Below are positions 43,764 to 48,733 of a stretch of DNA of 64,000 bases, piece by piece (within the stretch, counting starts at the first letter, position 1; every line of letters begins with the position of its first letter). The notes below the pieces were generated by a model that saw nothing but the letters and a program-made list of their open reading frames with translations, was not told the DNA's origin and did no database searches. Both the position numbers and the translations under genes were made by a program. The stretch spans positions 4,768,001 through 4,832,000 of the forward strand of contig OZ241917.1 of assembly GCA_965203805.1 (NCBI GenBank), read 5' to 3'. The stretch comes from Candidatus Latescibacterota bacterium. Its GTDB lineage: Bacteria; Latescibacterota; UBA2968; GCA-2709665.

Positions 43764-46700
43764 ATGACATTCGTGATTTCCACACCAACTTTCCAGGAGC
43801 TCATTCTTCGCCTCGAGCGCTACTGGGCGGACCGGGGTTGCGTCATCTGGCAGCCTTACAATGAAAAGGTGGGCGCCGGGACGATGAACCCCGCCACGGT
43901 CCTTCGTGTGCTCGGTCCGGAGTCCTGGAACGTGGCATACGTTGAACCCAGCTTCCGTCCGGACGACGGAAGATTCGGCGAGAACCCGAACCGGATGCAG
44001 ATGCACACGCAGTACCAGGTTATTCTCAAACCCGAGCCGGGCAACCCCCAGGAACTTTATCTGGATAGCCTGGAAGCGTTGGGTCTGGATCGGCGGCAGC
44101 ACGACATCCGTTTTGTGGAAGACAACTGGGAACAGCCCGCACTGGGCGCGTGGGGCCTGGGGTGGGAGGTCTGGCTCGACGGCCTGGAAATCACCCAGTT
44201 CACCTATTTCCAGCAGGCCGGAGGCCTGTCCCTGGACCCGGTGCCGGTCGAAATCACCTACGGAATGGAACGTATCGCAATGTATGTGCAGGATGTGCGC
44301 GAAGTCTGGCAGCTTCAATGGAACGAACAGGTCTCCTACGGCGACATTCTCAGACTGCAGGAAGTGGAATATTGCAACTATGAGTTCCACTCAGCTAACG
44401 TGGAACGTCTGCATACCATGTTCAGACTCTTCCATGACGAAGCCGCCGCCGCCATAGACCGCGGTCTTGTCATTCCCGCCCATGACTACGTGTTGCGGTG
44501 CTCTCACACCTTCAACCTGCTGGACACCCGCGGAGCCGTTGGCGTTACCGAGCGTGCGCGGTACTTCGCGCAGATCCGAGGACTCGCCACACAGGTGGCC
44601 GAAGGGTTCGCGCGACAGCGCGAAGCGACCGGGCACCCCCTCAAAAGGAAGACCGGAGCCGCGACTGCACCGAATGCGGTACCGGGCGCTGAACCGCTGG
44701 AGCGCGCCGACCTGCTGCTGGAGATCGGATCCGAGGAACTCCCGCCTCAGGACGTACGGTCGGGGATCGAACAGCTCGACGCGTCACTGCCCGAGCTTCT
44801 TCAGGAGCAGAGGCTGGAATATGACGACGTCCAAATAACCGGTACGCCCAGACGGCTTGTGGCCAGCGTCAGGAATCTCATTGGCCGGCAGCCAGACCGC
44901 AAACGCGAAGTACGCGGACCGGCCGTGAAGGCCGCTTACGACGACGAAGGAAACCCCACACGCGCCCTCGAGGGATTCTGCCGCGGCCAGGGCATCTCTC
45001 CAGGATCGGTGGAACACAGGCAAGACGACAAGGGAATCGAATACGTCTATGCCCGCCGTCACGAGCCCGGACGCCAAACACAGGAAATCCTGTCGGAAGT
45101 CCTTCCCGGACTGATTGCCGGCCTGAACTTTCCGAAAACAATGCGTTGGGACTCCGACGGCATCGCCTATCCCCGACCTCTACGCTGGATTGTCGCCCTG
45201 TTTGGAAACCGGATTGTCCCGTTTCCCTTCGCCCGGATCCGGAGTGGACGTGCCAGCCGCGGCCTCAGGCCCGCGGGCGATCCGCCAATCCAGGTGGAAT
45301 CCGCGGAAACCTATCATCCGCAAATGAAAGAACACGGCGTGATCGTCGACCGAGACCGGCGAAGAAAAGCCATCTGGAAGCAGGTCCTTGAAGAGGCGCG
45401 GGCGGCAGGCGGCAACGTAAGGGTAGATCCCGATCTGCTCGACGAAGTCACCGACCTGGTCGAGGCGCCGTTCGCGCTTTGCGGCGGCTTCGATGAAACC
45501 CACCTTGAACTGCCGCAGGAGGTCCTGGGCACCGTACTCAGGACATACCAGCGTTACTTCCCCATCGTACACCCGGATACCGGCCGGCTGTTACCCAGGT
45601 TCGTCGCCGTATCCAACGGCAAGCCGACGGATCCAGGCCCCGTCGTTCGCGGGAACGAGAATGTCGTTCGCGCCAGATTTGCGGACGCCGCCTTTTTCTA
45701 CAGGGAAGACGGTCGAAAACCCCTGGAAGACTACCTGCCACGGCTGGATACGCTTACCTACCAGGACGACCTTGGATCGGTCAGGGACAAGAGTGCGCGA
45801 ATCGAACAGCTTGTTTCCGTGGTTGCGCCGGAACTGGGGCTGACGGACGGTGGCACGAGCACGGCAGAGCGAGCGGCCCGGCTTTGCAAAGCCGATCTGG
45901 CCACCGGAATGGTTGTGGAGATGACGTCCCTTCAGGGTGTGATGGGGCGCTACTATGCCCTGTTGTCCAAAGAGACAGACGAAGTGGCCCTGGCCATTCA
46001 GGAACACTATCTTCCCCGGTTTCCCGGGGATATGCTGCCTGCAGGCGAATCCGGATTTGCGGTTTCCGTCGCCGACCGGCTGGACAGCCTGGCCGGCCTG
46101 TTCTGTGCCGGTATCAAGCCACGGTCCACCGCCGATCCCTACGGACTGAGGCGCGACGCGCTGGGCCTCCTCGCGTTGCTCATCGGGAAACGCCGCCACT
46201 TCTCCCTCAAGAAGGGCCTGGAGGCCGCGGCGTCGGGCCTCCCTGTCCGGATCGATGCAGATCGATTGAACGACGCATATGCGTTCATCCTGCGGCGCCT
46301 TGGCGTACAGTTGAAAGAGGAAGGCTTTCGCCACGACGTGGTCGAAGCGGCCCTTGGCGGCGGCTGCGACGATCCTTTCGGCCTTCGCAACATCGTTGAA
46401 GGCCTCGATCGAATGGTCCGTTCGGAAAATTGGACGGAAACGCTTCATGCGTACGCGCGCTGCAGACGCATTGTCCGCGACCTGGATGAAATCCATCCAT
46501 TGAATATAGACGCGGATCCGGCCCCGGCTTCCCGCAGCCTTCTCGAAAAGTGGCGGGACGCCCGCAACGTGATGGATGGCTGTGATGCCGGGATCGACAG
46601 GCTGGAAAGCGTGCTTGCCGATATGCGCGGGCCGATCAACACCTTCTTCGATGAAGTCATGGTGATGGATGAAGATCCGGTCCTGCGGGCGGCGCGCCTG

Positions 46701-46769
46701 GCGCTGGTGCAGCGTATCGCCTCTCTCGCCGACGGCGTTGCGGACCTGGGCAGGCTGGAGGGGTTTTAA
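43764..46769 (+). CDS. glyQS: Glycine--tRNA ligase, fused alpha and beta subunits
   Basis: Alpha motifs [36 protein letters not shown] are in frame with beta motifs [26 protein letters not shown]. Confidence 0.95.
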
Positions 46770-46788: not shown

Positions 46789-47370
46789 ATGCGCATCGTC
46801 ACGGGAAAACTCAAAGGCCGGACCATCCCGTTTGACGTCAGGAAATACGGTCGTGCCCGCGTAACGCCGGGGAGGGTCAAGGAGGCCGCGTTTACCGTTC
46901 TGGGCGCCCGCCTCGACCAACTTCATTTTCTCGATCTCTTTTCCTGTTCCGGGCAGATCGGCCTCGAGGCGTACAGCCGCGGGGCCCGGGTGCTTCTGAA
47001 CGAACCTGATCGTCGCCGGCGCCGCTTTATTTCGAGGCTGCTGAAAGACTGGGGTGTGGATCAACAGATCCGGCTGCTGGATCAGCCGGCGGAGACACTA
47101 CTGCCGCTCCTGGAGTCGGAACAGCGGCACTTTGACGTGATTTACCTGGATCCGCCGTACCGGCTGCAAATGGACGGCGTTCCGTTCGCCCTCGCCATCC
47201 TTGCCCGCCTGAGCGGCTCGATGCTCGTAGCTCCGTCGGGCCATGTCCTCATACAACACGTCGCGGAACTGGAGTTGCCCGTTGCGGTACGGGCTCTTGC
47301 GTTGCGCATTCGGAAGAACTACGGCAGTACTTCATTATCGGTGTACCAGAGGGTGGACCGCGGCGAGTAG
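46789..47370 (+). CDS. rsmD: RsmD-family methyltransferase
   Basis: MRIVTGKLKGR, LDLFSCSGQIGLEAYSRGA, YLDPPY. Confidence 0.85.
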   Translation: MRIVTGKLKGRTIPFDVRKYGRARVTPGRVKEAAFTVLGARLDQLHFLDLFSCSGQIGLEAYSRGARVLLNEPDRRRRRFISRLLKDWGVDQQIRLLDQPAETLLPLLESEQRHFDVIYLDPPYRLQMDGVPFALAILARLSGSMLVAPSGHVLIQHVAELELPVAVRALALRIRKNYGSTSLSVYQRVDRGE

Positions 47371-47458
47371 GCCTCAATCCGAAATATCCATTTGCTTTGG
47401 TACGCCAACGTACGTATTTTTCAGGTATCCAACCCCTATTCCGAAAGGAGTCGACCGC

Positions 47459-47737
47459 ATGGATACGATGCACGAGTCTATGGAATTCCGCCCCCGCGGC
47501 CGAACGCTTGCCATGGGCGGTATCCCCTGGCTGCCGCGGATCACGGACAAAGCCCGGGCCATGCTGCGCAACAATATCGGCGACTACGTCTACCCCTGAC
47601 CCGCCGACCAGAAGTTCCTGGAGGAACTCGGCATACCGGCAGAAAAGTTTACCCGAATCGTCTCGGAGTGCAAACTGGACGAGGAAGTCATCGAACGCGT
47701 CCGCCCCTATTTCGAGAAGTCCCGAAGTCGCCGATAA
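47459..47737 (+). CDS. DUF5069-like small protein, probable selenoprotein (UGA at codon 47)
   Basis: AAGGAG RBS and ATG 47459; GGIPWLPRITDKARA..IGDYVYP-[TGA 47597-47599]-PADQKFLEELGI...TAA 47737. The frame stays family-like after the TGA, and a SECIS-like hairpin follows. Confidence 0.75.
47603..47632 (+). promoter_or_regulatory. Putative bacterial SECIS element
   Basis: GCCG-ACCAGA-AGTTCC-[TGGA]-GGAACT-CGGC; the apical loop starts 19 nt after the UGA, with G at loop position 2. Confidence 0.6.
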
Positions 47738-47743
47738 AACAGG

Positions 47744-47782
47744 AAAGCCGCCACGCGTTGCGCGGCGGCTTCGCACTTTTTT
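47744..47782 (+). terminator. Intrinsic terminator after the full-length read-through ORF
   Basis: aagccgcc-acgcgttgcgc-ggcggctt hairpin with a downstream T-run. Confidence 0.6.
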
Positions 47783-47797
47783 CTAACAATCTGAACG

Positions 47798-48733
47798 CTA
47801 ACGCCTCCCGCCTTCCGGCAATGCCTGCCTGGCCAGCGCCCTGATCTCGCCTGACCCCATCCGAAGCAATCCATCGATCCCGATCAAGTCGGCCGCGACG
47901 AGTTGCGGACATTCCTGGGCAGCCAGATCGTATGCTTCTTCGACATCGTAGTTGACCCCTCTGTACCTGTAGAGATGGCCCAGGCTGTCCAGCTGTCCAC
48001 TGCGTCTCAGCGAATTCGTGACACCCATCTTGAAGTAATATAACTGCCGGTCTCTCCTGTCTCCCCACCTCAAGGTATCCGGCTCCGGGACATCCGCCAT
48101 CGATCGGTCGAGTTCCGCCTGAAAGGCGTCGATCTGGCCGTCGACTATCTCCAGCAGCCCTCGAAGGACTTCCCTGCGAGCAGCTTCTCTTTCGTCCTGA
48201 AGCATATCCTGCAGCACCAGCGCTGCTTTTCCATAAAACACGTAACGTTCGCGCTTCCCCTCTCCGAACAGATCCATTTCAATAGCTTCGGCCTTTCGCG
48301 CCAGGGCCTCCAGGTCAAGGTAATCGTCGCCAACGCCGGCATAGTCGTCGTCCCCGCGCGCTACCTGAATGCCCACCAGAAAGGCCCGCTCGACAATATG
48401 CATCATATTTTCAGCCGAATCGAATATCCGCAATTTCCCGGACGTTCTTCTTTCCGTGCGTACCGGATCCGCGCCAGGTGTAAACCCCCGTCCGACCAGT
48501 ACCTGCTCGGCCTCTATTCCCAGACGGCCGAGCAGTTCACGGAGCACGCCGCTCAATACGGGTTGCCCCGCGGTCGGCAGGAATTCCCCCCGGCCTTCCA
48601 CGACGAGGTCCGCCATCTCGGACGCCAGCGCTTCGTCTCCCTCGGGATCGGCAATCTTTCGCCCGTCCCGTGCACGCGTCAGGCGGAAGACAATCACGAA
48701 TATCAACAGGACAGCCACGACGACATAGACCAT
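47798..48733 (-). CDS. Hypothetical protein with N-terminal membrane anchor
   Basis: 311-aa ORF, AGGAGG RBS, N-terminal hydrophobic helix; no family recognised. Confidence 0.7.
   Translation of the reverse strand: MVYVVVAVLLIFVIVFRLTRARDGRKIADPEGDEALASEMADLVVEGRGEFLPTAGQPVLSGVLRELLGRLGIEAEQVLVGRGFTPGADPVRTERRTSGKLRIFDSAENMMHIVERAFLVGIQVARGDDDYAGVGDDYLDLEALARKAEAIEMDLFGEGKRERYVFYGKAALVLQDMLQDEREAARREVLRGLLEIVDGQIDAFQAELDRSMADVPEPDTLRWGDRRDRQLYYFKMGVTNSLRRSGQLDSLGHLYRYRGVNYDVEEAYDLAAQECPQLVAADLIGIDGLLRMGSGEIRALARQALPEGGRR

Follow-up and report, generated by a model that had tools for sequence, protein, structure and literature searches.

A short DUF5069 gene with UGA at a conserved cysteine position is a probable selenoprotein gene in Latescibacterota and Poribacteria

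The gene at 47459..47737 on the plus strand of the window (the whole stretch of 64,000 nucleotides of Candidatus Latescibacterota DNA that was analysed) is very probably a real selenoprotein gene, in which we infer that selenocysteine (Sec) is inserted at an in-frame UGA, codon 47. Its product would be a four-helix protein of 92 residues that represents the DUF5069 domain in its N-terminal half only, and the Sec, within the motif GDYxYP-U-[PG]AD, would cap helix 2 at its N-terminus. Ribosomes at the UGA would be served by Sec-tRNA(Sec) delivered by SelB, and SelB would in turn be recruited by a stem-loop within the coding sequence, encoded by the K-F-L-E-E-L codons, with a 6-bp stem and a UGGA loop 19 nt past the UGA. 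Judged from comparative sequence data, the short form of DUF5069 is a selenoprotein family that has not been listed, and an addition to the known bacterial selenoproteins. Two uncultured phyla have forms with UGA, in 103 Latescibacterota and at least 141 Poribacteria genomes at species level (at least 244 together), and yet the family stands outside the inventory of May 2026 (PMC13188914).

Read directly from the DNA, the gene starts with ATG at 47459 and runs through 46 codons, a TGA at 47597..47599, 45 sense codons and a TAA at 47735-47737, which makes 92 codons plus the stop, and a strong ribosome-binding site, AAAGGAG (47444..47450, plus strand), lies 8 nt 5' of the ATG; the original prediction had described this same order. 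Translation across the UGA gives ...GDYVYP-U-PADQKFL.... An alignment of the 92-aa product to DUF5069 had been proposed as a check, and Pfam DUF5069 (PF16798) matches residues 12-82, and hence sequence before and after the TGA, with an E-value of 1.1e-14 and a score of 55.1 bits, above the gathering threshold of 27. The match covers positions 4-74 of the 133 in the Pfam model, less than the whole domain, and since the protein ends at residue 92 we file it as a short-form relative (about 90 aa) that corresponds to the N-terminal half. None of the NCBIfam models matched the product at E up to 1. There is no in-frame ATG, GTG or TTG 3' of the TGA within 47459-47737, which excludes an independent start of the second half.

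Between the gene and a convergent gene at 47798-48733 on the minus strand there is a G+C-rich hairpin (47744..47772), which is probably a two-way terminator. A terminator behind the gene had been foreseen, and the hairpin is there together with a run of six T on the plus strand (47777-47782, starting 4 nt past the stem), but the terminator scan scores the hairpin on the minus strand only. A further terminator-like hairpin with a T-run is located at 47400-47413, between an RsmD-like gene and the selenoprotein gene, so the latter may have a separate promoter; a promoter scan of 47200-47900 found no sigma-70-like site.

The same DNA has been assembled independently in three studies. A 7,036-nt contig from a sponge-metagenome DNA run shows 6 differences over 47200-48000, one of 1,211 nt from an RNA library of another study shows 5 over 47200-47840, and two RNA libraries of a third study gave contigs of 368 and 584 nt over the selenoprotein gene at about 95% identity, where contigs from RNA libraries are to be taken as no proof of transcription. 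Reads with TGC or TGT had been named as evidence against a selenoprotein; all the contigs, from one DNA and three RNA-library runs, retain the TGA and likewise the hairpin at 47613-47628. The 368- and 584-nt contigs of the two metatranscriptome runs, at 47409-47721, span little beyond the selenoprotein gene (the X19 and X20 contigs end at 47721), and the only other contigs of these runs on the stretch are two that belong to the convergent gene next to it. This would be in keeping with a separate short transcript of the selenoprotein gene, as far as contigs, which cannot show ends, can tell.

In 41 related genomes, its own included, a full-length orthologue of 90-94 aa is found in 37, and these have TGA in 35 cases and Cys (TGC) in two, in exactly one column. 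A scan with one genome per species gave 63 loci, of which 46 have TGA and 17 have Cys, a ratio biased towards Cys forms in that Cys was part of one of the two search patterns. At E up to 1e-15 the gene occurs in 118 of 168 Latescibacterota genomes, with one TGA in 103 and none in 15. The hits lie in four families of one class (19/21, 29/31, 2/3 and 67/76 genomes), and none of 36 genomes from the other ten Latescibacterota families has the short DUF5069 gene. When 40 loci were fetched, 39 had a TGA or Cys codon in the motif GDYx[YF]P-[U/C]-xxD, and one was ended by a contig edge. Among the Poribacteria the gene occurs in 168 of 176 genomes; among the 150 matches listed, with 19 others outside the list, TGA is present in 142 and absent from 8, giving at least 141 genomes with TGA, and the position was confirmed at the ten loci inspected, three with TGA and seven with Cys. 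UGA-containing orthologues, which the original prediction had suggested looking for, occur in both phyla.

The prediction had also placed the TGA on a conserved Cys, and this agrees with the alignments. Every non-TGA orthologue that was translated has Cys in the column (17, including two of the related genomes, 6 and 7 in the three sets), and so has the DUF5069 protein of known structure that is discussed below. In the wider family, 168 domain hits have Cys in 112 cases and Ser in 29; 15 have some other residue and 12 none, ten of the last being representatives that end at position 46. Ser and other residues at the column mean that the residue is not universally needed, and in the multi-domain DUF5069 relatives the column is mostly Ser. 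The window genome itself contains such a relative, a 431-residue protein with three tandem full-length DUF5069 domains at C1:4030069-4031364 (L201:7070-8365). It adjoins a creatininase-family gene and a DegT-type aminotransferase gene, just past a DDE transposase, and these neighbours were uninformative when considered as a clue to function.

The reading frame behind the UGA bears the marks of a translated protein. In 49 unique Sec-form sequences, invariant residues are there written with varying codons, such as the phenylalanine at +17 (TTC 25, TTT 24) and the aspartate at +27 (GAT 29, GAC 20), and four codons are in use for the proline at +36, so the coding constraint continues past the UGA. 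An AlphaFold2 model made with an alignment of 91 sequences (pLDDT 90.7) has a small beta-hairpin followed by four helices, with U47 directly before the helix 48-57, at its N-cap. Bacterial Sec insertion competes with release factor 2, and this competition gives some room for a reading in which termination at the UGA is dominant and the functional product is a 46-residue peptide, the hairpin then serving to slow the ribosome or to stabilise the mRNA. We consider this very unlikely, since such a peptide would be without helices 2-4 of a confidently modelled domain, the downstream half is conserved as protein, and the Cys forms make the full-length protein. Insertion of Sec and synthesis of the whole 92-residue product is the far more probable explanation.

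The apical hairpin of the putative SECIS element is located at 47613..47628 on the plus strand, where AGTTCC (47613-47618) pairs with GGAACT (47623-47628) around the loop UGGA (TGGA in the DNA, 47619-47622). The stem is 6-7 bp, and the loop, with its early G, starts 19 nt past the UGA, just as had been predicted. A lower stem, GCCG at 47603-47606 with CGGC at 47637-47640, extends the element to 47603..47640 (plus strand), and the minimum free energy is -12.5 kcal/mol for these 38 nt and -6.5 kcal/mol for the apical hairpin alone. A fold of 71 nt around the hairpin reaches -15 kcal/mol, which does not stand out from shuffled sequence (z -0.36, with 70 of 200 shuffles equally stable); the single sequence is thus not beyond chance, and it is the comparative evidence that carries the case. 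The bacterial SECIS model, as given in the Fig. 2 legend of PMC13188914, has a loop of 3-9 nt, an upper stem of 4-16 bp, a distance of 16-37 nt from the UGA, a G within the first two loop positions and a minimum free energy of at most -7.5 kcal/mol. The hairpin agrees with these values in its loop of 4 nt, stem of 6 bp and spacing of 19 nt, and the energy threshold is reached only together with the lower stem, which is weakly conserved. The original prediction had claimed such a fit, and covariation in the stem now adds to it.

In the 49 unique Sec-form sequences of families f1-f3, codons +6 to +9 (F-L-E-E) are each written with one codon only, and for the same amino acids elsewhere in these sequences the codons vary freely. 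The hairpin codons also specify the conserved FLEE, and the conservation is therefore partly a protein constraint. For the pairing analysis 29 unique sequences of family f4 were added to those of f1-f3, to a total of 74 unique Sec-form sequences. Pair 24-37 is G-C in 45 of them and C-G in 29, pair 23-38 is A-U in 43, G-U in 22 and G-C in 9, neither pair being unpaired in any sequence, and pairs 26-35 and 27-34 change to G-U only; over the five core pairs one cell of 518 is unpaired. Altogether 92.9% of the cells are paired, compared to 81.7% in shuffles (none of 500 reached the observed value) and to 19-62% when the register is slid. The flip from G-C to C-G at pair 24-37 may go back to one event that separates two clades.

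The hairpin also follows the Sec codon. All 55 unique Sec stretches have the UGGA loop, against 3 of the 19 Cys stretches, and all five core pairs are found in 54 of the 55 and in one of the 19, respectively; moreover, two recent Cys revertants inside a Sec genus each have a synonymous change that strikes the hairpin. The lower stem is another matter. The GCCG/CGGC base on which the hairpin had been said to stand does pair in the window, but it is only partly conserved, pair 15-48 being C-G in 15 sequences, U-A in 13, A-U in 2 and unpaired in 13, and pair 16-47 G-C in 28 and unpaired in 17. With 79% of its cells paired and one compensatory pair, we rejected it as a conserved part of the element. 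The nearly invariant core with the UGGA loop, found in two phyla, could be useful for widening the models of bacterial SECIS elements.

The window genome, a single contig of 5.87 Mb, has the complete set of Sec genes that the prediction had proposed to look for. In a profile search selA scored 559 bits (cut-off 268) and selB 371 bits (cut-off 242), and tRNA-Sec, the product of selC, scored 73 bits (gathering score 47) and has the anticodon TCA according to ARAGORN; these three are clustered side by side at C1:1837983-1841498. The selD gene (359 bits; C1:2775468-2776391) has a TGA inside itself, at 2775495, and a hairpin loop GGUC that starts 17 nt past the UGA. An FdhA-like gene at C1:788378-789829 has a TGA at 788786, in the motif SRAUHAP, and a loop GGUCU 18 nt downstream of the UGA, and it and selD are two further selenoprotein genes of this genome. 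Among the 168 Latescibacterota genomes SelA is above the cut-off in 131. It is present in 101 of the 103 genomes with the TGA form, the two others being 80% and 81% complete, and absent in 3 of the 15 with the Cys form.

The loop of the DUF5069 gene, UGGA, is unlike those of selD (GGUC) and fdhA (GGUCU) in the same genome, and there are other systems in which read-through of UGA is stimulated. Both would suit an explanation in which a near-cognate tRNA (Trp, Cys or Arg) reads the UGA with the aid of the hairpin and without any Sec. The distribution makes this extremely unlikely, since the TGA form is found in genomes with SelA, with no exceptions apart from the two incomplete ones, and SelA-lacking genomes carry Cys. 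The spacing and the loop G also fit the SECIS model, and exchange between Cys and UGA is the classic signature of Sec according to PMC12013277. Decoding as Sec would instead place the gene beside the single-Sec families with an intragenic SECIS element in Table 1 of PMC13188914. Like them it has UGA in a conserved Cys column and homologues with Cys, and Sec and Cys forms that interchange along the tree (at least six changes among 102 rows); the small loop with an early G, 16-37 nt past the UGA, and the presumed dependence on selA, selB, selC and selD are shared as well.

Gene callers stop at TGA, and the protein collections do hold what a simple nonsense mutation would leave behind, a decaying DUF5069 gene with its second half untranslated. 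Near relatives among 5.8 billion clustered proteins are either Cys forms, entries that show W at this position, or fragments that break off at ...GDY[VI]YP, and a set of 1.84 billion cluster representatives includes ten whose last residue is position 46. Such decay has next to no probability, however, with a TGA at the same column in the 103 Latescibacterota and at least 141 Poribacteria genomes, and with 45 downstream codons that are open, of the same total length (90-94 aa) and conserved in amino acids through synonymous change. If the UGA is read as Sec in all these genomes, DUF5069 selenoprotein genes are truncated or mistranslated in the public collections, and the selenoproteome counts of both phyla would consequently be too low.

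Three database entries, P0005, P0007 and P0022, have W at the Sec position, P0007 then running into unrelated sequence, and they have apparently been produced with a genetic code in which TGA means Trp. That TGA is a sense codon here (Trp or Gly, as in genetic codes 4 or 25) would be in line with these entries, which presumably come from such a code, but its probability is negligible, given that TGA serves as a normal stop codon in the window, as had been noted originally (it ends 23 of the 51 ORFs of at least 250 aa in these 64 kb), that it even closes the gene itself in 2 of the 37 orthologues (L035 and L042) and in more of the wider sets, that relatives have Cys and not Trp in the column, and that the genome has a dedicated tRNA-Sec with selA and selB.

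The prediction did not know DUF5069 as an established selenoprotein family, and our searches agree. Neither DUF5069 nor PF16798 is among the 119 families and subfamilies in Table 1 of PMC13188914 (May 2026), and no paper was found with "DUF5069" or "PF16798" in the full-text literature. The family is not listed in the available part of the deep-Sep paper (PMC12013277), and in the selenoprotein literature on Latescibacter* and the selenocysteine literature on Poribacteria, as represented by titles, there is none on a DUF5069 gene. The BSepDB supplement, a file that probably has no family table, does not contain DUF5069, PF16798 or "DUF". The families of Haft and Gwadz 2023, so far as they appear as NCBIfam models in Table 1 of PMC13188914, do not match the 92-aa product.

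In a tree built from 102 unique proteins after masking of the Sec/Cys column, at least six changes between Sec and Cys are required, of which well-supported branches force only two, the alignment of 90 columns being too short for a count of origins. The two Cys forms nested in a Sec genus are clear cases of reversion from Sec to Cys. The hairpin core is common to all three Sec clades and so speaks for a single origin of the Sec form, which has possibly spread between sponge-associated phyla.

The alignment of 91 members gives some idea about what residue 47 might do. Near-invariant are P12, R13, L25, R27, D30, K31, R33, A34, C/U47, D50, F64 and D74, so that a lone selenol would stand at a helix N-cap amid conserved charged residues, which suggests a nucleophilic or redox site. 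As the sole conserved Cys/Sec position, residue 47 may well be the active-site nucleophile or redox centre of the modelled protein. The window product lacks UxxC and CxxU motifs as well as a thioredoxin-like fold, which sets it apart from the listed single-Sec families. The structure of one DUF5069 protein has already been solved (PDB 3omd, 145 aa, from Leptospirillum rubarum), a protein of unknown function, and its Cys aligns with the Sec (E 3.2e-14). The likeness extends to the fold, with a Foldseek E-value of 4e-4, a TM-score of 0.77 and an rmsd of 1.6 over 78 columns, and with a VIA-align Z of 12.3 and an rmsd of 2.3 over 85 residues; the two differ in that 3omd has Cys and continues to 145 aa, and the window protein would have Sec and stops at 92. 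Foldseek against the PDB and a wide VIA-align search found no structural relative except 3omd, all others having Z of at most 4.3, and the fold therefore gives no function. Even so, one residue of this domain of unknown function can now be marked as a probable active site.

A gene for a protein of about 340 residues (c0) lies directly 5' of the selenoprotein gene in 13 of the 16 f4 loci, and in 9 of the 63 loci of the one-per-species scan, with an overlap of 1-14 nt or a gap of at most 20 nt. This is the arrangement in family f4 and in a Cys clade that includes Opitutales and Handelsmanbacteria, and it was not seen at the Poribacteria loci examined. The protein had no match in Pfam or NCBIfam, and we therefore call it APH-like and not a member of the family, although a language model gives it a likeness of 0.98-0.99 to APH clusters (PF01636 family). 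K53, D210 and N215 are invariant in its alignment, and we take these Lys, Asp and Asn to be the catalytic positions of APH-type kinases.

The two genes also tend to occur in the same genomes. Among the 168 Latescibacterota genomes 113 have both, 5 only the selenoprotein gene, 4 only the kinase gene and 46 neither, and among the 176 Poribacteria the corresponding numbers are 165, 3, 2 and 6; related genomes are not independent, so these numbers overstate how much independent evidence there is, and the co-occurrence is a lead and not proof. The distribution nevertheless suggests that the DUF5069 selenoprotein most likely works together with the APH-like kinase, and with this candidate partner the function of DUF5069 becomes a question that can be tested. 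One could go further and think of the two genes as a module, with residue 47 as the acceptor of the kinase or as a nucleophile acting on its product, the Sec forms passing through a Se-P or Se-substrate intermediate. We regard this as unlikely; to our knowledge a protein-bound intermediate of that kind has not been described for any selenoprotein, and if true, a phosphate-accepting role, open to Cys, Sec and Ser alike, would account for the scarcity of other residues at the column.

In the window genome the kinase gene (C1:5149845-5150858) is 334 kb away from the selenoprotein gene, between a DUF362 and an AIR-synthase-like gene (L190, C1:5148345-5152358). The DUF362 protein has 428 aa and the kinase about 352 aa, and the AIR-synthase-family protein falls below the cut-off for HypE, ThiL and SelD alike. 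A DUF362 gene is directly upstream of the kinase in 5 of the 12 loci examined, these 5 belonging to families f1/f2, and at the Poribacteria loci among the 12 nothing conserved was found around the kinase.

The neighbours of the selenoprotein gene in the window are a fused glyQS gene, an RsmD-like methyltransferase gene, a gene for a 311-aa protein of no known function and an ABC transporter. They were considered as a clue to function and discarded, as none of them recurs apart from the RsmD-like gene, which is present at 34 of 64 loci, that of the window included, and does not suggest any function. The glyQ-glyS fusion is a 1001-residue ORF at 43764-46769 on the plus strand, with glycyl-tRNA synthetase alpha and beta subunit domains and also a DALR domain. 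In 4 of the 16 loci of family f4 (e.g. L176:3094-3984) a gene for a ferredoxin-NADP-reductase-like oxidoreductase of 297 aa starts 2 nt before the end of the selenoprotein gene, which hints at a redox context.
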